Assembly: GCA_022828105.1 (NCBI GenBank)
Contig: JAJEJC010000007.1
Span: 204,885-268,884 of the forward strand
DNA: 64,000 bases
Origin: Dehalococcoidia bacterium
GTDB lineage: Bacteria > Chloroflexota > Dehalococcoidia > Bin125
Direction: 5' to 3'
Of this stretch, positions 7,665 through 49,965 are shown in pieces. The stretch's first letter is position 1; each line of letters starts with the position of its first letter. The notes under the pieces are model-generated. The model saw only the letters and a program-made list of their open reading frames with translations. It was not told the DNA's origin and ran no database searches. The translations under genes and the position numbers were made by a program.

Positions 7665-9271
7665 TGCCATCGACCGGCGTCGATCCGGCGCGTCTCGCCA
7701 TCTTCGACTCGCTGGTCAGCTCGATCGCCGAGGAGATGGGCGCTGCGCTGAGACATACCGCGCTCTCGCCGAACATCAAGGAGCGCGCCGACTTCTCCTG
7801 CGCCGTGTTCGATCACGACGGGCAGTTGCTCGCCCAGGCGGCGCACATCCCGGTTCACCTGGGCGCGATGCCGGAGTCGGTGCGCGCCGTGGAGCGGCTC
7901 GCACCGTGGCGGCCTGGCGACCTGGCGATTCTCAACGATCCGTTCCTGGGCGGAACGCACCTGCCCGATGTGACGATGGTGTCGCCAGTGTTTGCGCACG
8001 ACGCGGCGGAGGGCAGTGAGCCGATGGGCTACGTCGCGAGTCGCGCGCACCAGGCGGATATCGGCGGCATGGCTCCGGGCTCGATGCCAGTCGCCCGCGA
8101 GCTGATCCAGGAAGGTCTGGTGATCCCGCCGATCCGGCTGTATCGCGGCGGCGAACTGGTTGAGGAAGCGATGTCGCTGATCCTCCGCAACGTGCGCACC
8201 CCGGACGAACGGAGAGGTGACTTCAACGCCCAGATCGCGGCGCAACGACTTGGCGCGCGTCGCCTGGCCGACCTGCAGGCGGAGTACGGGGCGGACCGAT
8301 ACCGAGAGACGACCAACGCCTTGCTCGACTACGGCGAACGCCTGACGCGCGCGTACCTGCAGGATCTCCCGCAGGGCTCCTGGACCTTTGAAGACGCGCT
8401 CGACGACGACGGTCATGAGCCGGATCCCGTGCCGATCAAGCTGTCGCTGACGCTGTCGGGGGATCGAGCACACTTCGACTTCAGCGGCAGCGCGCCTCAG
8501 CGGGCCGCCTCGATCAATGCCGTCGCGCCGGTCACGCGCTCGGCCTGCTACTACGTCATTTGCTGTCTGTTGCCGCCGGACACGCCGATGAACTCGGGAC
8601 TCTTCCGTCCGATCACGTTCAACTTGCCGGAACGCTCGGTCGTCGCCGCACAGTCGCCGGTGGCCGTCGCCGCCGGCAACGTTGAGACCTCGCAACGGAT
8701 TGTCGACACGGTCTGGGGCGCGTTTGCGAAGGTCCTGCCCGAGCAGATGCCAGCGGCGTCGTCGGGCACGATGAACAATCTGACGGCCGGCGGCGTGGAT
8801 CCGCGCAACGGTCAACCGTGGGCCTACTACGAGACGTCGGGAGGCGGACTCGGTGGGGGTCCGACGGGCGCAGGCCTTGATGCGGCGCACTCGCACATGA
8901 CGAACACGCTGAACACGCCCGCCGAAGCACTCGAGCTCGCGTATCCGCTGCGCGTGATCGAGAACAGCATTCGACCTCGTTCGTCGGGGGGCGGCGTCCA
9001 TCGCGGCGGTCATGGCCTTACCCGGCGCACGCAGTTTCTCGGACCGGCGCAGGTCACGATCATCAGCGAGCGGCGGCAGCAGCAACCCTGGGGCGCAAAT
9101 GGCGGCCTGCCTGGCAAGGAAGGCCGAAACAGCCTGGAGCGCCCCGCCGAGGGAAGCCGTCGCTCGCGTCGCACCTTGCCCGGCAAGGTGACGATCGACG
9201 TGCACGCGGGAGAGATCATTCGCCTCGACACTCCCGGCGGCGGCGGATGGGGCGCGCCTGAATCACGCTAG
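7664..9271 (+). CDS. hyuB: Hydantoinase B/oxoprolinase family protein (HyuB)
   Basis: DPARLAIFDSLVSSIAEEMGAALRHTALSPNIKERADFSCAVFDHDGQLLAQAAHIPVHLGAM typical HyuB N-terminus. ATG at 7664 overlaps the hyuA TAA by 1 nt (TAATG). Confidence 0.85.
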   Translation: MPSTGVDPARLAIFDSLVSSIAEEMGAALRHTALSPNIKERADFSCAVFDHDGQLLAQAAHIPVHLGAMPESVRAVERLAPWRPGDLAILNDPFLGGTHLPDVTMVSPVFAHDAAEGSEPMGYVASRAHQADIGGMAPGSMPVARELIQEGLVIPPIRLYRGGELVEEAMSLILRNVRTPDERRGDFNAQIAAQRLGARRLADLQAEYGADRYRETTNALLDYGERLTRAYLQDLPQGSWTFEDALDDDGHEPDPVPIKLSLTLSGDRAHFDFSGSAPQRAASINAVAPVTRSACYYVICCLLPPDTPMNSGLFRPITFNLPERSVVAAQSPVAVAAGNVETSQRIVDTVWGAFAKVLPEQMPAASSGTMNNLTAGGVDPRNGQPWAYYETSGGGLGGGPTGAGLDAAHSHMTNTLNTPAEALELAYPLRVIENSIRPRSSGGGVHRGGHGLTRRTQFLGPAQVTIISERRQQQPWGANGGLPGKEGRNSLERPAEGSRRSRRTLPGKVTIDVHAGEIIRLDTPGGGGWGAPESR

Positions 9272-9302
9272 AATTGCACGCACGGGAAGTGCAGGAGCGA
9301 CC

Positions 9303-9704
9303 ATGCCGGAAGGCTCAGACCGACTCGAACGCGATGTCGAGGAAGTGCTCTCCAACATCGAGGACTTCGACTGGCGGCGGAGACAATCCAGGCGTCCCGG
9401 GCCGATCCGTCTCGCCGTTCAGCGGTTCGGCGCCGGAATCGTCAATCGTGCGACGGCACTGACGGCGAATCATCTCCTGTTGGTCGGCGCGCTGTTTCTG
9501 ATTGTCGGCCTGGTCCTGCGCGGCGGCGGGATGTGGCTCGCCGTGGCCGGCATTGTCGTGTTCGTGATTGGCCTGTTCTGGGCGTCGCGGGGCGGTGGGA
9601 GAGGAAATGGTCAGCCAAGGGGCGGCTACTGGCGAGATCGGTACATCAGCTACGAATCGCAGTCAGGAAACCCGTTGAAACGCTGGTTCCGACGAAACCG
9701 CTGA
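9303..9704 (+). CDS. Hypothetical membrane protein (two predicted TM helices, Gly/Arg-rich C-terminal tail)
   Basis: ORF directly downstream of hyuB; hydrophobic stretches LLLVGALFLIVGLVL and LAVAGIVVFVIGLFW. No family recognised. Confidence 0.4.
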   Translation: MPEGSDRLERDVEEVLSNIEDFDWRRRQSRRPGPIRLAVQRFGAGIVNRATALTANHLLLVGALFLIVGLVLRGGGMWLAVAGIVVFVIGLFWASRGGGRGNGQPRGGYWRDRYISYESQSGNPLKRWFRRNR

Positions 9705-9720
9705 TCTGTTCGACCGCGTC

Positions 9721-11196
9721 GTGCTGATCCGACTTCTGCTCACCGTGTTTCTGGGATCGGCATTGGTCGCAGCGTGCGGCGGCGATAAGCCGCCGTCTCC
9801 AGCGGCCGTTGAGACGACATCGCAATCCGAACAGACGCAACCGGCACAATCAGCAAGATCGGCAACCAGTGAAGCCCGGGCTGAAGCTGAACAGTCGCAA
9901 GGCACTGAGCAATCCGAATCCGCGCATCAACAGCAGTCTTCGCCCCAATTGGTAGAGGAGTCAGACCAATCGACCGCCGAAGCCGATGCAGACGCTGACC
10001 GGTTCCTGGCGTCGCCTCCGACGTTGGATCGCGGCCATGCGGCGAACGCGGTGATTGCGCTTGCCGAAACGTTGGGGCCGCGACCGTCCGGGACGGCCGA
10101 AGAGGTCGCGGCCGCCGCACACATCGCGGACCTGCTCGAATCGTATGGATACGAGGTGCGGATTGAGCCGTTTGAGTACAGCGTGGAGCAGCCTATCGTT
10201 CAAATCTTTCTGAGCGACGCGGAAGACATAGCCGCTTCCCGGTTCCGGGGTTCGGATCTTGGCGCAGTTGAAGGGCGCTTGCAGCCAATCGAAGGTGAAG
10301 GCAACCCAGCCGACTATGAAGGGGTAGACGTAGCAGGAGCGATCGTGCTCGTCGACCGCGGCCTCATCACGTTCGCAGAGAAGGCGCAACACGCCGCGGA
10401 AGCTGGTGCGGCAGCACTCATCATCGTCAACAACGACAACTTCTGGCTGCTCGGAGACTTGGCTGAGTATCGCAGCCCGATACCCGTCTTCGGCGTCACT
10501 CGCATACTGGGACGCAACCTGAAGTCTCGTTCTCCCCAGGTCGTGACTATCTCCCCATCTTCGGGAGACGTGAGTCGCTCTCAGAATATCGTCGCGCTTC
10601 GTCCGGACGCGATCTGCAGCGTCATCGTGGGAGCTCACTACGACACCGTTTACCGAACTGCCGGCTACAACGACAACAGTTCGGGGACGGCCTTGATGAT
10701 GGAGTTTGCCAGGATTTACGCCGAACACGCTGCCTCCGAACATCTGTGTTTCGTGGGTTTCGGCGCTGAGGAGGTTGGCATCTACGGATCGAGAGAATAC
10801 GTTCGCCGACTGAAGGAGACAGGACAGCTCGCCGATGTTCGCTACTTGCTCAACCTCGATGCCATCGGCTCCGGTTCCTTGCATCTCTCCCTCTCGGTCA
10901 ACGGAGCTGACCTTCGCCTCCTGACCGCTCGGCTGGTTGAGCAACTCGGCATACCCGGCCCTTACATTGAGCAGGGCGGATGGGCCGATGCCTACCCATT
11001 TGCGCAAGCGGGGGTCGAGACGTTTTTCCCGTTGCCCGCCGGAGGTGTGATGAACACGATCGCCGATGACTCGAGCAACTTCGATGCCGCAGTCTTTCAG
11101 GAAGTGGCCCGACTCGCCGAGCATGTTCTGCAATGCATGCTGGAGCGTTCCGGCGCCTCAATCCGTCCGGTGTTCGATTGCGGCGATCCGAGTTAG
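9721..11196 (+). CDS. M28 family peptidase (aminopeptidase) lipoprotein with PA domain
   Basis: Lipoprotein signal LGSALVAACGG; PA-domain-like VAGAIVLVDRGLITFAEKAQHA; M28 catalytic motifs GAHYDTVYRTAGYNDNSSGTALMMEFARIY and GFGAEEVGIYGSREY. Confidence 0.8.
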   Translation: MLIRLLLTVFLGSALVAACGGDKPPSPAAVETTSQSEQTQPAQSARSATSEARAEAEQSQGTEQSESAHQQQSSPQLVEESDQSTAEADADADRFLASPPTLDRGHAANAVIALAETLGPRPSGTAEEVAAAAHIADLLESYGYEVRIEPFEYSVEQPIVQIFLSDAEDIAASRFRGSDLGAVEGRLQPIEGEGNPADYEGVDVAGAIVLVDRGLITFAEKAQHAAEAGAAALIIVNNDNFWLLGDLAEYRSPIPVFGVTRILGRNLKSRSPQVVTISPSSGDVSRSQNIVALRPDAICSVIVGAHYDTVYRTAGYNDNSSGTALMMEFARIYAEHAASEHLCFVGFGAEEVGIYGSREYVRRLKETGQLADVRYLLNLDAIGSGSLHLSLSVNGADLRLLTARLVEQLGIPGPYIEQGGWADAYPFAQAGVETFFPLPAGGVMNTIADDSSNFDAAVFQEVARLAEHVLQCMLERSGASIRPVFDCGDPS

Positions 11197-11243
11197 CAAC
11201 CACGTGCGACACTAGAAGGGTGAAGTCCCCGCGCCGCATTGGC

Positions 11244-11885
11244 ATGTCCCTCCTCGTTCTGGTCGTTCTGGCCACTCTGGTCACGGTCGCCTGCGGCAGC
11301 GAGGCATCCGCGCCGACCCCGATCGATCCTGCCGCCGCATCGCAGACCGCCGTTGTTGACGAGGACATCCCGGTCGAAGCGCTGCCCGATCCGCTGCCGG
11401 CGCCCTACCTGATCGAGGACGACGTCACCGTCGAACAGGCCCCAATCACTGAGACGACCTATGTCGTCCAACCGGGCGACAGCCTCGCCGCGATCGCTGG
11501 TCGTTTCTGCATCACCGTGGAGGAGATCCAGCGACTCAACACGATCGTAGACATCGATTCGCTCGATGTTGGCGATGAGCTCAGGATTCCAATTCGCGAG
11601 GGAGGCTGCGGCGCGGCTGCGCCCCAGAGCGCGCAGTCGGAGGAGACGGCCGTAGAGGAGCCGACGCGGCCGCCCGGCGAAATCTACATCGTCGAGGCCG
11701 GAGACACGCTGGCCGATATCGGCTTCGCGTTCGGGTTTACCTGGGTCGAGCTAATGAACTACAACGGATTGACCGAGTCACAGGCGGCCAACCTGCAAAT
11801 CGGTCAGGCGCTGATCATCCCGCCGCAACCGGACGAGGTCGAGCAAGAGGCGGAGCAGGCTGGCTCCTCCGAACCGCCCGGCTAA
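11244..11885 (+). CDS. LysM-domain lipoprotein (two LysM repeats)
   Basis: Start at ATG 11244 (MSLLVLVVLATLVTVACGSE lipobox) rather than the ORF-track 11133, which would overlap the peptidase. LysM repeats YVVQPGDSLAAIAGRF...LRIP and YIVEAGDTLADIGFAF...LIIP. Confidence 0.75.
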   Translation: MSLLVLVVLATLVTVACGSEASAPTPIDPAAASQTAVVDEDIPVEALPDPLPAPYLIEDDVTVEQAPITETTYVVQPGDSLAAIAGRFCITVEEIQRLNTIVDIDSLDVGDELRIPIREGGCGAAAPQSAQSEETAVEEPTRPPGEIYIVEAGDTLADIGFAFGFTWVELMNYNGLTESQAANLQIGQALIIPPQPDEVEQEAEQAGSSEPPG

Positions 11886-37893: not shown

Positions 37894-39108
37894 TTACCCG
37901 AGTGCGCCGCTCTCGGCCAGCGCCGCGATCTCGTCGTCCGACAGGCCGGTCTCGCGCAGTACGTCGTGGGTGTGCTGTCCGGTCTTCGGCGCCGGACCGC
38001 GCGGTCCGATCTCAGCCCCTTCGATCTCGAACGGTGTGTTCAACGTGCGGAACGGACCTTCGGGCCCGTCAATCACGCTCCAGGCGTTCATCTCCTCCAT
38101 CTGCGGATCGTGAATCAGCTCCGGAAGCTCGGCAACCGGCGCCCAGGTCAACGCCTCGGCGTCGAGACGCGGAACCCACTCGGCGAGCTGCTTCGAGCGG
38201 AACGTGGCAACGATCTCGGAAGTGAGTTCGCGACTGTGTTCCGCCCGTCCAAGCAAGGTCGAGAAACGCTCATCTCCGGCCAGATCCTCGCGGCCCAGCG
38301 CCCTGCAGGTCGGTTGCCAGTAACGATCGCCGGTCGGCATGACCAACATCAGCCAGCGACCGTCGGCGGTCTCGTAGGAGTTGAACAGCGGATTGCCCGG
38401 CTGCACGCGGTCGATTCGTTGCGGCTGCTGCTCGGTGATCAACGCCGCCGAGACATCCGCCCCGATCGTCCACGCGCCGGTCCGTTGCAGCGTGACCTCG
38501 ACGTACTGGCCCTCGTCGGTCAGATCGCGCAGACGCAGCGCCGCAAGCGTGCCCGAAAGCAGATTGAGCGCCGTCGCATGATCGCCTTGTCCAGGACGGC
38601 AGGGCATCGGCGGACCGCCCGGCTCGCCGATCAGACTCATGATCCCCGATCGCGACCAGAACGCCGAGTAGTCGAAGGCTGTCTTGGCGTTGTCGGGCCC
38701 GCGCGTTCCGTAGCCGGTGAGCACCACGTAGATCAGACCCGGATTGACATCCTGCAATGACTCGCGGGTCAGGTCGTAGCGGGCGATACGCGGGGCGGTC
38801 AGGTTGGTGATGAAGATGTCGGCGCCGGCGACCATCCGCTTGACGACCTCGCTCGCGCCCGGACGCTCCAGCGAGAGCGCGACCCCGCGCTTGCCGCGGT
38901 TGTCCAGCTCGAACGCGGCATCCACGTCTGTCTCAGGGTCGAAGTCTGACTTCTGGCCGCGCATCAGCGTGGTGCGCCAGGCGTCGCCCACGGGATTCTC
39001 GATTTTGACCACGTCGGCGCCCAGATCGGCCATCAAGGCCGCCGCCGATGGCGCCGCCAACCAGTTCGCAACCTCGACAACCCGAATTCCCTCGAGCGGC
39101 GCAACCAT
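37894..39108 (-). CDS. Family-III CoA-transferase (CaiB/BaiF)
   Basis: GIRVVEVANWLAAPSAAALMADLGADVVKIENP...DIFITNLTAPRIARYDL. Start ATG 39108 (MVAPLEG) with GAAGGG SD; the longer ORF-track start is unlikely. Confidence 0.85.
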   Translation of the reverse strand: MVAPLEGIRVVEVANWLAAPSAAALMADLGADVVKIENPVGDAWRTTLMRGQKSDFDPETDVDAAFELDNRGKRGVALSLERPGASEVVKRMVAGADIFITNLTAPRIARYDLTRESLQDVNPGLIYVVLTGYGTRGPDNAKTAFDYSAFWSRSGIMSLIGEPGGPPMPCRPGQGDHATALNLLSGTLAALRLRDLTDEGQYVEVTLQRTGAWTIGADVSAALITEQQPQRIDRVQPGNPLFNSYETADGRWLMLVMPTGDRYWQPTCRALGREDLAGDERFSTLLGRAEHSRELTSEIVATFRSKQLAEWVPRLDAEALTWAPVAELPELIHDPQMEEMNAWSVIDGPEGPFRTLNTPFEIEGAEIGPRGPAPKTGQHTHDVLRETGLSDDEIAALAESGALG

Positions 39109-47285: not shown

Positions 47286-47996
47286 ATGAAGACTATCGCC
47301 CGCATTTCGCCGACCCGCCTGCTCGCCGCGCTGTCGTTGGTCGCGCTCGCGCTCGCGCTGTTTACCCTGCCCGTCGCGTTCACGGTCCGCTATGCGACGA
47401 CATCCGCCTCATGGTGGGAGCGTGGATTCGAGAAGTACGACGCCACGCGGCGCACCGGTCTGCCGCAGGACGAGGTGCTCAGGATCGCGCAGGAAACCCG
47501 CGACTACCTCACCAACGACGAGGAGCGCCTGGACGTCAACGTCGACGGCGCGCCTTTCTACTCGGAGCGCGAGATCCTGCACATGATCGACGTCAAGCGC
47601 CTCATGGCCCGCACGTTCGACGCCGGCTGGGCCGCGCTGGGCTTCATCGTTGCGTTCGCCGCGCTGGTGATCTGGCGTCATCGCCGCCGCGCGGCGCCGG
47701 TCCTGGCTCGCTCAATCCTGTCCGCCTGCGGCGTAGTCGCGTTGCTCGTCGTCGTGCTGGGCATCGTCGGCATCGCCGGATTCGACGCCGCATTCCGACA
47801 GTTCCACCTGCTCTTCTTCACCAACGACCTCTGGCAGCTCAGTTCGCGCGACGGACTGATCCAGCTTTTCCCGCAAGGCTTCTTCTTCGACACCACGATG
47901 CTGATCGGCGGCGTCACGCTGGTCGTCGTCGTCACCCCGGCATTGCTGGCCGGTCTCTATGAGTGGCGTCAACGACGGAGGCTGTCGTCTCGCTAG
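47286..47996 (+). CDS. TIGR01906/DUF1461 family integral membrane protein
   Basis: N-terminal TM, conserved RxYLxNDE / DVNVDGAPFYSEREILHMxDVKRL pattern and three further TMs; family resemblance by eye. Confidence 0.55.
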   Translation: MKTIARISPTRLLAALSLVALALALFTLPVAFTVRYATTSASWWERGFEKYDATRRTGLPQDEVLRIAQETRDYLTNDEERLDVNVDGAPFYSEREILHMIDVKRLMARTFDAGWAALGFIVAFAALVIWRHRRRAAPVLARSILSACGVVALLVVVLGIVGIAGFDAAFRQFHLLFFTNDLWQLSSRDGLIQLFPQGFFFDTTMLIGGVTLVVVVTPALLAGLYEWRQRRRLSSR

Positions 47997-49501
47997 GAAT
48001 TCGGGGCGGCATTCGAAGCGCGGTAGGCTCCGGGCTCGTACCAGCCGGCGGCGAACAGCAAACCATTGTGCCGCACGACCCATGTGTGCTTCTGCTCCTG
48101 CTCGCCGCTTTCGGGATTGAGGAACACGTAACTGACCCACCCCTGATCCTCAATCGCGACGAACTCCTCTCGGAAGTTGCGCCCGGTCACATCTGGCCCG
48201 CCGTCGAGCAGGTTTCCTCCCAGCGGCAGGTAGGGGTGCGCCAGCCGAGTGCCGTCGAGTTCGTAGATGCTCACGTACCACTCGCCATCCACGCTCTCCG
48301 GAGAGTTGTGATGCTCGATTACTGCGTCGCGGCCATCGGCGTCGTAGCGGTCAATCGCGTCTTGCACCAACGCCCTGGCGTAGCCAGCCGGATCCTGCTC
48401 GGCCAGGTTGTAGTTGCGGTCGTACCAACCCGAGCCGAAGAGCAAGTCTCCTTGCCGCACGATCCAGCTGTGCTTGCGCTGGTACTGAAGCTCCGCGTCC
48501 GGGTTCGGGAACACGTACGAGACCCAATCGTTGGTATCGATCGACAGGGTGTCGTCAACGTAGTCGTATCCCGTCACGTCGACTCCAGTGCCGTGCAGAT
48601 TGCTGCCCAGCCAGCCCGGGCGGTCGGCGCGCGCGCCGTTGACAAGGCGCGTGCCGTCCGCGCTGTGGATGAACAGGTACCACTCGCCGTCGATGCTCTC
48701 CGGCGAGTTGTAGTACTCGAAGGTCGCTTCGCGGCCCAGCACGCGGTACAGCTCCAGCGCCCGCTCGACGTACGACTGCGTGTAGGCGCCCGGCGCGTGG
48801 ATCTTCGACGGGCCATCCTCATACCAGCCCGAGCCGAAGACCAGACCGTCGTGCCGCACGACCCAGGAGTGCTTGATCTGTGCCCGGCCGAGCGCCGGAT
48901 TGTTGAACTGGTAGTCGACCCAGGCGCCTTCGACAGTGGCAGCAGCCTCGGCCATCCGACCAGCCTGGAATCCATCTGGACCATTGGCATCGGCGGCCGG
49001 GAGTCCGACCAGGTCGGGGTCGCGATTGGCGACGATCATGGATTCTTCGCTGATGATAAACACGTACCACTGACCGTCCACGCTCTCGGGCGAGTTGTAG
49101 TACGCGATGGTCTCCATCAGGCCATCGCGCTCGTACCTGGCGATTGCCTGTTCGACAAACCACTGCGTGTACGCGCCGGGATCCGAGACATCTGGAACCG
49201 CTGCCGCGGCGCTGACGGCAAACGGATTGCTGGAGTACCACTCGCCAGGCTCCGCGGGGACCGGGAGGAAGCGGGCCTCGGGCGTGTGAGTCGCCCATTC
49301 ACTGCCGCCGGTCCTGCTCTGCGCGCGCACCTCGACCCGGCCAAGCTCCGTCTCCCGCGCCTGGACGCGCAGCTCGACTTCGCCTCGATGGTCGTCGGAA
49401 GCCGCGAAATCGAATCGAACGAGGCCGCTGATCGCGACGAGGCCAAGGACGGCAACGGTAAGCAGGACACCCGCAGTCAGGGCACGAGTCCAACGTGACA
49501 T
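47993..49501 (-). CDS. Signal-anchored extracytoplasmic protein with three tandem sCache_2-like domains and no output domain
   Basis: N-terminal TM/signal (LTAGVLLTVAVLGLVAI), then three ~125-aa repeats each containing YYNSPES[VI]DG[QE]WY...L(A/V)...G.N....G.DV.G...........WV.Y.F.NP.......K.SW[VI]VR..GL.F(G/A)(S/A)GWY[ED]. Confidence 0.7.
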   Translation of the reverse strand: MSRWTRALTAGVLLTVAVLGLVAISGLVRFDFAASDDHRGEVELRVQARETELGRVEVRAQSRTGGSEWATHTPEARFLPVPAEPGEWYSSNPFAVSAAAAVPDVSDPGAYTQWFVEQAIARYERDGLMETIAYYNSPESVDGQWYVFIISEESMIVANRDPDLVGLPAADANGPDGFQAGRMAEAAATVEGAWVDYQFNNPALGRAQIKHSWVVRHDGLVFGSGWYEDGPSKIHAPGAYTQSYVERALELYRVLGREATFEYYNSPESIDGEWYLFIHSADGTRLVNGARADRPGWLGSNLHGTGVDVTGYDYVDDTLSIDTNDWVSYVFPNPDAELQYQRKHSWIVRQGDLLFGSGWYDRNYNLAEQDPAGYARALVQDAIDRYDADGRDAVIEHHNSPESVDGEWYVSIYELDGTRLAHPYLPLGGNLLDGGPDVTGRNFREEFVAIEDQGWVSYVFLNPESGEQEQKHTWVVRHNGLLFAAGWYEPGAYRASNAAPNS

Positions 49502-49544: not shown

Positions 49545-49802
49545 CTAGTTCAGCGCGCCCATGCCGCCGCCGCAGCCGCAGGAGCCCCGGCCGCAGGCAC
49601 AGCCGCCGCCGGTCGGCATCGCCTCGGCCGCTTCCACATCCGCGTACTGTCCCGCAATCGAGACCATCGCGGTCGTCAGCACCTTCTGCGCCATGCTGCC
49701 GCAGTGGCACTCGTACGGCTCGGCAGCCTGACTCATCGGTCGCAGCTTGGTGAACTTCTCGTTGCAGGGACGGCAGTAGTACTCGTACATCGGCATCGGC
49801 AT
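49545..49802 (-). CDS. FmdB-family zinc-ribbon protein (putative regulatory protein)
   Basis: YEYYCRPCNEKF...YECHCGS CxxC-(n)-CxC ribbon and Cys/Gly-rich tail GGGCACGRGSCGCGGGMG typical of FmdB family. Start could be the internal ATG at 49796 or 49790. Confidence 0.65.
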   Translation of the reverse strand: MPMPMYEYYCRPCNEKFTKLRPMSQAAEPYECHCGSMAQKVLTTAMVSIAGQYADVEAAEAMPTGGGCACGRGSCGCGGGMGALN

Positions 49803-49890: not shown

Positions 49891-49965
49891 CCCCCCGTAG
49901 CTCAGGGGATAGAGCGGCGGTTTCCTAAACCGTGCGCGGAGGTTCGAATCCTCCCGGGGGGACCA
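49891..49965 (+). tRNA. tRNA-Arg (anticodon CCT)
   Basis: Manual cloverleaf: acceptor CCCCCCG/CGGGGGG, D-arm GCTC-AGGGGATA-GAGC, anticodon stem GCGGT/ACCGT with loop TTCCTAA (U33, CCT, A37), T-arm GGAGG-TTCGAAT-CCTCC, discriminator A, encoded CCA. Confidence 0.85.

Follow-up and report, generated by a model that had tools for sequence, protein, structure and literature searches.

No family of extracellular sensor modules in prokaryotes is larger than that of the Cache domains, which are regarded, almost by definition, as the inputs of signalling proteins. In more than 90% of cases they are joined to signalling modules, and forms that stand alone have been called 'highly unusual' (2026 preprint, PMC12889525); the documented exceptions are single heme-binding domains (PMC12889525) and SMP_2. 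A gene within a stretch of 64,000 nt from a Dehalococcoidia bacterium (Chloroflexota; GenBank assembly GCA_022828105.1, contig JAJEJC010000007.1, positions 204,885 to 268,884), in the following referred to as the window, encodes a protein of 502 amino acids (aa) with three tandem Cache repeats, in which no signalling output domain was recognised by Pfam or NCBIfam. This protein, hereafter the Cache protein, raises the question what three sensor modules are used for if no transmitter is attached to them. Since there is nothing to signal through, it is most likely a multivalent binding array for carboxylate-bearing molecules at the cell surface, which acts in capture and hand-off or in an adhesin-like manner; we hold this reading with moderate confidence.

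Three sCache_2 modules behind a single, predicted membrane anchor

The Cache gene and the parts of its product were assigned as follows:

47993..49501, minus strand: coding sequence of the Cache gene, 502 aa, ATG start (open reading frame list, Pfam; public Dehalococcoidia-type contigs carry an identical protein, P0001)
49418..49480, minus strand: predicted N-terminal signal anchor, aa ~8-28 (hydrophobicity scan; model helix at protein residues 3-24; ~9 cytoplasmic residues)
49202..49384, minus strand: conserved beta domain of ~60 aa, aa ~40-100, between anchor and repeat 1 (motif VRVQARxT..GRVEVRAQS..W.THTP.ARFLP..EPG.WYSS)
48815..49192, minus strand: Cache repeat 1, aa 104-229 (envelopes of the repeat hidden Markov model (HMM), pocket mapping, model with a predicted local distance difference test (pLDDT) value >90)
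48416..48805, minus strand: Cache repeat 2, aa 233-362 (repeat HMM envelopes, pocket mapping, model)
48032..48403, minus strand: Cache repeat 3, aa 367-490 (best Pfam match of the three, stretches 388-475 and 404-475; repeat HMM)

From the N-terminus onwards the protein consists of a single hydrophobic anchor, the ~60-aa beta domain and three Cache repeats of 124-130 aa, which share pairwise identities of 41-45%. The top-scoring Pfam model was dCache_2 (PF08269; 42.1 bits with a threshold of 26.5, E=7.7e-11). The sCache_2 model (PF17200) matched in two stretches with 34.1 bits (threshold 25, E=3.2e-8), and relatives reached 92-157 bits for sCache_2 with 3-6 stretches each. In the Pfam scan of the Cache protein neither HAMP, HisKA, HATPase, MCPsignal nor GGDEF was found and no other family came near its threshold; NCBIfam yielded no family and no signalling model. 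The dCache_2 match did not extend end to end, its best stretch covering profile positions 91-167 of 298, which corresponds to one module. As this match spans one module and each repeat possesses its own helices, the protein is composed of three sCache_2-like modules in series.

A sequence search of the PDB with the whole protein gave only a chance match to a MarR protein (E=1.7); a profile of 19 diverse family repeats retrieved TlpB (E=8e-6), PscD (6e-3) and 4K08 (7e-3). The AlphaFold2 model, calculated with 33 orthologues, had a mean pLDDT of 86 and a predicted template modelling score of 0.68, with values mostly above 90 in the repeats. Alignment A1 and model m8cb33d17cb9d are without Met1, i.e., model residue i is protein residue i+1. 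The modelled N-terminus forms a helix and then a small beta domain ahead of the three repeat units, in each of which a long and a short helix are followed by two strands, a helical insert and three strands. In Foldseek comparisons with the PDB, multi-PAS proteins matched at high root-mean-square deviation, and solved sCache_2 domains matched compactly as single domains: 4K08 (Adeh_3718, 25% identity, template modelling (TM) score 0.63), 4EXO/2QHK, TlpB 3UB7/8 and PscD 5G4Y. Target-normalised TM scores of 0.53-0.65 for 4K08, 4EXO, 3UB7/8 and 5G4Y place the modelled repeats within the Cache fold. By profile and by predicted fold, the three repeats belong to sCache_2. The original prediction of three tandem sCache_2-like repeats without a HAMP, kinase, MCP or GGDEF domain is thus borne out by the open reading frame, the Pfam scores, the repeat identities and the domain scans; the profiles placed the repeats in sCache_2/dCache_2 rather than in any other fold, and the predicted fold is that of solved sCache_2 ligand-binding domains.

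The sCache_2 domains of chemoreceptors (PscD-SD 5G4Y/5G4Z, McpP, Adeh_3718 4K08, V. parahaemolyticus 4EXO/2QHK, H. pylori TlpB 3UB6-9) are members of the same Pfam family, are likewise extracytoplasmic and have the fold of N-terminal helices and a five-stranded sheet in common with the Cache protein. However, a chemoreceptor carries a single domain between two transmembrane helices, wired to HAMP and an MCP signalling domain, whereas the Cache protein has three domains in series on one anchor, neither a second transmembrane helix nor an output, and an identity to these domains of 15-25%. A second transmembrane helix with a cytoplasmic transmitter was likewise absent from 297 relatives. The tandem modules also resemble dCache_2, which is thought to stem from a duplication of sCache_2; yet each repeat has its own N-terminal helix pair, and the repeats follow each other like beads on a string instead of forming a membrane-distal/proximal double module.

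Output-less Cache proteins are atypical, and one could therefore suspect a truncated or decayed sensor gene, i.e., a chemoreceptor or kinase that has lost its transmembrane and cytoplasmic half. Conservation effectively refutes this explanation, which we regard as extremely improbable: 33 orthologues are conserved over the full length with 58-82% identity, hundreds of relatives stop within about 3 residues of their last repeat (median tail of 3 aa in 297 fetched relatives), the third-position GC of 0.81 shows the strong bias typical of real genes in this DNA, and a conserved convergent gene occupies the DNA downstream. A frameshift or a hidden output domain is rejected as well, because the coding sequence stops 12 residues past repeat 3 at a CTAG which is shared with the convergent gene; relatives stop at the same point. 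Orthologues can be aligned with the Cache protein from residue 1 to the C-terminus, and the identical P0001 is recorded on public contigs, the longest of which measures 942 kb. No second copy of the gene was found in the window by tblastn; the other match (38017-38610, E=0.14) is due to chance.

Residues 10-28 form the sole hydrophobic segment of the protein (mean Kyte-Doolittle value 2.48, maximum 0.72 past residue 40) and are preceded by Arg3 and Arg6. The sequence contains no cysteine, hence no lipobox Cys, and therefore is not that of a lipoprotein. The h-region comprises 22 residues, and inspection by eye showed no small-x-small cleavage site; both points suggest a signal anchor that is not cleaved, and the earlier description of the protein as secreted is probably wrong. 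Of the two possibilities, an N-in/C-out signal-anchor protein or a secreted one, the uncleaved anchor is the more likely, and from the anchor and Arg3/Arg6 an extracytoplasmic location of the Cache repeats is predicted. The bacterial cell was assumed to be single-membraned, as a member of the Dehalococcoidia. The Cache protein is accordingly described as a type-II-like membrane protein with a cytoplasmic stub of 9 residues and three consecutive, independently folded sCache_2 modules outside.

The beta domain between anchor and first repeat contains 17 invariant residues among 39 orthologues. It is modelled as beta strands in both models, the separate AlphaFold2 model having a pLDDT of only 67. 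The domain had no match in Pfam, and Foldseek against the PDB returned nothing below E=2; it may represent a family of extracellular domains that has so far gone unrecognised. It was also noticed at L044:2770-2985 and L062:9944-10159, and tandem copies of a related motif (SRRLEDGRIELRF...PDIRYL...GVWLRS) appear to be present in the ~800-aa N-terminal part of two giant family members of 1217 and 1473 aa.

The predicted ligand pocket

In PscD, propionate is held by hydrogen bonds from Tyr90, His103, Tyr143 and Lys156, sandwiched by Trp92 and Trp145 and closed off by Phe126 as back wall (PMC5062169). The chemoreceptor domains mentioned above share a Tyr/aromatic/His/Tyr/aromatic/Lys pocket pattern that binds C2-C3 carboxylates; the pattern defines the sCache_2 domains for short-chain carboxylates, and its His position sets the specificity for pyruvate vs lactate (PMC12415202). 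The equivalent positions in the Cache protein were mapped by a HMMER alignment to PscD of low identity (E about 0.006), with the PscD residues given in brackets:

Repeat 1: Y146 (Y90), F148 (W92), N159 (H103), Y197 (Y143), F199 (W145), K210 (K156), G181 (F126)
Repeat 2: Y275 (Y90), F277 (W92), N288 (H103), Y329 (Y143), F331 (W145), K343 (K156), V315 (F126)
Repeat 3: Y409 (Y90), S411 (W92), H422 (H103), Y458 (Y143), F460 (W145), K471 (K156), R444 (F126)

According to this low-identity alignment, repeat 3 possesses the Tyr/His/Tyr/Lys residues of the carboxylate subgroup (PscD/McpP/4EXO type) but S411 at the first aromatic position, and repeats 1 and 2 possess both Phe but Asn for His. In 296 unique repeats of relatives the positions are occupied by Tyr (98%), Phe (91%), His (79%; Asn 12%), Tyr (98%), Phe/Tyr (83%) and Lys (98%), and repeats assigned to Cenarchaeum retain the same pattern as those of the Dehalococcoidia family. 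Membership of the carboxylate-binding sCache_2 subgroup is plausible from these residues, and each module would, we infer, bind a ligand with a carboxylate group. The back of the pocket differs among the three repeats (Gly181, Val315, Arg444), and the modules therefore probably prefer different carboxylates. In 85% of the 296 repeats the back-wall column, Phe126 in PscD, is Gly, which suggests a larger pocket than that of PscD.

In the proposed binding array, Tyr-x-Phe of strand 1, His/Asn of strand 2, Tyr-x-Phe of strand 3 and Lys of strand 4 would clamp the carboxylate of a small acid, and the modules together would hold carboxylate-bearing molecules at the cell surface. The ligands might be dissolved organic acids, amino acids or acidic groups on a host matrix. 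The array could then capture them and hand them off to nearby uptake systems, or serve as an adhesin-like module. The conserved pocket provides direct ligand hypotheses that are testable with recombinant single repeats.

Repeat number, fusion partners and gene neighbours in the family

A word-indexed search yielded at least 1,776 relatives, of which all named ones derive from metagenome-assembled genomes (MAGs) of Chloroflexi/Chloroflexota and are labelled 'hypothetical' or 'cache domain-containing'. The scan of species-representative genomes gave 492 confirmed matches, and 80 loci were kept, nearly all from Dehalococcoidia or Chloroflexota MAGs. Many of the loci come from the bin series SB06xx, RHO, IRC and COS, which we take to be sponge microbiome projects. 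With the three window repeats as profile, 2,176 clusters (50% identity) were found at E<=1e-3 and 241 at E<=1e-30, and their proteins carry 2 to 16 repeats. Within the 80 loci, proteins with three repeats prevail (51), accompanied by those with four (18), five (8), six (7), two (5) and eight (1). Even inside the syntenic orthogroup of the window gene the number is 2, 3, 4 or 5, from which it follows that modules are gained and lost freely; this fits independent beads and not a fixed machine.

Neither HAMP, kinase, MCP nor GGDEF occurred in the Pfam lists of the top 120 matches, in five re-scanned relatives or in 17 long or tailed representatives, and no output domain was detected on the Cache proteins of the 80 loci. 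The search for homologues fused to output domains, which had been proposed along with the original prediction, was thus negative throughout these sets. Instead, the accessory domains of family members are all extracellular modules: a collagen triple-helix repeat in a re-scanned relative; Laminin_G_3 with Ig, PPC, 5'-nucleotidase_C, Peptidase_S8 with PPC and RCC1, and cadherin-like domains among the long representatives; DUF285/BspA-type leucine-rich repeats (LRR) in proteins which NCBI assigns to Cenarchaeum MAGs; and a C-terminal SBP_bac_3 domain in two representative clusters (P0227 and P0234). One of the Cenarchaeum proteins, P0236 (NCBI MYI52124.1, Cenarchaeum sp. SB0673_bin_9), is a BspA-type LRR surface protein with about 5 Cache repeats and has 27% identity to the window protein over 404 aa in BLASTP (E=5e-22). 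In P0234 (L090:8001-10298) four nearly identical Cache repeats precede SBP_bac_3, and their near-identity indicates a very recent amplification; the contig is transposase-rich and archaeal-looking, as it also encodes diphthamide synthase and TiaS.

The segment between anchor and first repeat varies among the paralogues and may be a beta domain, a coiled-coil-like stretch, a lipobox with a collagen-like Gly-X-Y stalk or a lipobox with short helical repeats. In many paralogues the N-terminus is a lipobox (e.g., LLLAAVAC/QGE), and a long Gly-X-Y stretch of the collagen-like type separates it from the Cache repeats, which points to stalked proteins with a lipid anchor that are possibly trimeric:

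~200 nt upstream of the first repeat: lipobox and collagen-like stretch in the paralogues of loci L048, L051, L052, L057, L058, L060, L066, L067, L070, L076, L078, L080, L082, L084 and L086-L089

Collagen-like and coiled-coil stalks, lipid anchors and the fused surface modules (cadherin-like, Ig, laminin-G and BspA-LRR) would also be expected of a surface-coat or host-adhesion protein, in which the Cache fold is a mere repeatable scaffold and the binding of small molecules is irrelevant, comparable to an 'eukaryotic-like' symbiont protein on the sponge matrix or in an envelope layer. This explanation is further favoured by the presence of the family in Cenarchaeum MAGs with record names matching sponge-derived bins, by repeats which are unusually alike family-wide (mean column identity 51%) and by a four-repeat member (L092:4121-7797) that is flanked on both sides by the same pair of insertion sequences (DUF4096 and DDE_Tnp_1). 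The latter arrangement resembles a composite transposon and suggests mobility, which would fit a horizontal spread of the gene. However, the top-conserved residues of the repeats are those which clamp the ligand in characterised sCache_2 domains (both Tyr and the Lys, 98% each), which argues that the pocket is under selection, and we consider a pure scaffold unlikely. Adhesion might also use the pocket itself, e.g., for acidic sugars, in which case this explanation merges with the binding array.

Paralogues of the Cache gene occupy about 18 types of neighbourhood. Liv-type or Aap-type ATP-binding cassette (ABC) transporters for amino acids or their binding proteins lie beside the Cache gene in L007/L040, L046, L059, L061, L071, L039, L041 and L051, and a CitMHS carboxylate transporter follows it directly in L050, L053, L054 and L056, genes for a HisKA_3 kinase and a LuxR-type regulator being close to it. 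Some paralogues are located downstream of SdhAB-like genes or of a GlcD-like FAD oxidase. The SBP_bac_3 fusions and transporter neighbours lend some support to a role in nutrient capture; the cadherin, Ig, laminin-G, BspA and collagen fusions together with the occurrence in Cenarchaeum lend some to adhesion or host interaction. Lipid- or transmembrane-anchored solute-binding proteins of ABC transporters (SBP_bac_3, Peripla_BP_6) are likewise tethered extracytoplasmic binders of small molecules. They have a two-lobed Venus-flytrap fold, which is unrelated to Cache, and although family members are fused to SBP_bac_3 or encoded beside ABC amino-acid transporters, docking of a Cache array on a permease is unsupported.

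The neighbourhoods also bear on the possibility that the array is a co-sensor or auxiliary subunit, which binds its ligand outside and modulates a separate transducer, such as a sensor-less histidine kinase or an ion channel, via its anchor or ectodomain. The prevalence of Cache domains that feed signalling modules, as quoted above (PMC12889525), speaks for such a role. A multi-transmembrane HisKA_3 kinase and a LuxR-type regulator are encoded near the paralogues of L050, L053, L054, L056 and L032, the paralogues of L039 and L041 lie directly downstream of a GAF-PAS hybrid kinase gene, and those of L075 and L077 directly downstream of an Ion_trans gene. The latter encodes a voltage-gated-type cation channel (Pfam E=3e-50; L075:~9100-11404 and L077:8661-11167), is located on the same strand immediately upstream of a three-repeat Cache lipoprotein gene and recalls the pairing of channel and alpha2delta in animals. 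In voltage-gated calcium channels the alpha2delta subunits are, like the Cache protein, extracellular and membrane-tethered, contain several Cache modules without enzymatic or transmitter output and act by binding (PMC5092059, PMC9901441). In contrast to it, they are eukaryotic, combine two dCache_1 domains with VWA, lack an N-terminal helix anchor and have a dedicated channel partner (PMC9901441); in the Cache protein, which is no member of the alpha2delta family, neither VWA nor dCache_1 scored above threshold, and an Ion_trans gene adjoins a family member in L075 and L077 only.

Against a co-sensor stands that genes for a kinase, MCP, cyclase or channel are missing within 10 kb both in the window and in about 35 syntenic orthologue loci; around the window gene there is no transporter gene either. 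The channel is missing beside two close relatives of the L075 protein (L091, L092), and the partners change from one paralogue group to another. Stalks, 2-16 repeats and adhesin-like or enzymatic extracellular fusions are unexpected of a dedicated co-sensor, and the cytoplasmic stub comprises only about 9 residues. A co-sensor role is thus rather improbable. The stand-alone sCache_heme proteins (Tll0287-like), one of the rare documented cases in which Cache domains commonly lack an output domain (PMC12889525), differ from the Cache protein: they consist of a single domain with a covalent c-type heme on CXXCH and a proposed redox role, whereas the Cache protein has no cysteine.

The shortlist of the original prediction, a ligand-binding scaffold, a co-sensor or a solute scavenger, is still the right one, and the evidence leans to scaffold or scavenger over co-sensor. 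A role in binding, be it capture or adhesion, is preferred to signalling because outputs are absent, the fusion partners are extracellular, stalks are present and the number of modules varies freely. That the array works in this way is less certain than the carboxylate-binding pockets, and a cooperation of some family members with uptake systems is the least certain of the three. Several points weigh against the binding array. The pocket was mapped with profile alignments of low identity (E about 0.006 to PscD), in which Asn replaces His in repeats 1 and 2 and Ser is the first stacking residue in repeat 3. A tether aids uptake only if the ligand is handed off to a transporter, and no such partner was identified; the window orthogroup is without a nearby transporter, its constant neighbours being only a zinc-ribbon gene and the gene of a convergent Lit-family protein. 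Transporter adjacency of the paralogues is a descriptive pattern, and the rigid collagen-like stalks of paralogues suit display or adhesion better than hand-off.

For the family as a whole, we tentatively suggest that poly-Cache arrays form an undescribed class of surface proteins, with 2-16 output-less sCache_2 modules on transmembrane or lipid anchors and with collagen-like, coiled-coil or beta-domain stalks. They would have reached unrelated sponge symbionts (Dehalococcoidia and the archaeon Cenarchaeum), in part by way of mobile DNA, and could act as multivalent carboxylate-binding 'antennae' for adhesion or nutrient capture. Literature searches on tandem or output-less Cache domains and on Cache domains in SAR202, Dehalococcoidia and sponge Chloroflexi returned no account of the family, nor a paper on tandem output-less Cache arrays or on Cache proteins of Dehalococcoidia or SAR202. 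If the suggestion is true, the Cache sensor fold is used outside signal transduction: about 2,200 clusters carry the module in up to 16 copies and none of those examined is wired to an output, which differs from the view of Cache as a signalling input. The Cache fold would also be a general extracellular binding module if its copies are mounted on stalks or joined to adhesin-like domains, enzymes and solute-binding proteins. As the family is concentrated in uncultured Dehalococcoidia and also present in Cenarchaeum, it is a testable candidate for the binding of host-derived or dissolved organic acids by symbionts. Within an uncultured group of ecological importance this unusual architecture is widespread, and its function is what we infer here.

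Genomic neighbourhood of the Cache gene

The following features surround the Cache gene in the window:

49545..49802, minus strand: zinc-ribbon gene of the FmdB family on the same strand as the Cache gene, 43 nt upstream of it (Pfam Zn_ribbon_8, TIGR02605)
47286..47996, plus strand: convergent gene of a Lit-family membrane protein (Pfam PF07314, TIGR01906); the stop codons overlap by 4 nt (CTAG)
49891..49965, plus strand: tRNA-Arg(CCT) (ARAGORN), between an amidase gene and the zinc-ribbon/Cache pair, on the opposite strand to the pair

No terminator-like site was found between the zinc-ribbon and Cache genes, which probably form a two-gene operon. In about 35 related loci the zinc-ribbon gene lies directly upstream of the Cache gene, also where other genes are found further upstream, and MazG, UvrD and the convergent Lit-family gene accompany the pair down to about 46-52% identity.

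About 32 loci preserve the convergent arrangement, with spacings between a 3-nt gap and a 22-nt overlap. The 4-nt overlap with this neighbour had been noticed correctly in the original prediction, but its designation as DUF1461 is outdated, PF07314 now being named Lit. The neighbour passes TIGR01906; with the NCBIfam Lit equivalog it reached 35.5 bits (cutoff 400). The idea that the Cache protein is a lipoprotein substrate of this neighbour was rejected, as the protein has no Cys and the neighbour scores far below the Lit cutoff.

An operon of amidase, FmdB and Cache genes for a TlpB-like sensing of amides or urea was considered as well and is weakened. The amidase gene is not part of the unit, because the tRNA-Arg(CCT) gene intervenes on the opposite strand and because relatives carry unrelated insertions at this spot, namely HigBA, a helix-turn-helix protein with an acetyltransferase, a TacA-like antitoxin or transposase-sized open reading frames. 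The differing insertions suggest a tRNA-associated integration hot spot. Like the membrane anchoring, the N-terminal beta domain and the family of 2-16 repeats, this uncoupling of the upstream amidase by the tRNA was absent from the original prediction.

Two further genes were noticed beside more distant family members. The divergent L075 and L077 copies have a gene similar to the convergent Lit-family neighbour at a distance of two to three genes downstream. A GPP34 (Golgi phosphoprotein 3-like) gene is found directly downstream of a family member at L091:3729-4379; a 2025 article lists GPP34 as a protein family linked to sponge symbiosis in Actinobacteriota (PMC11706023).

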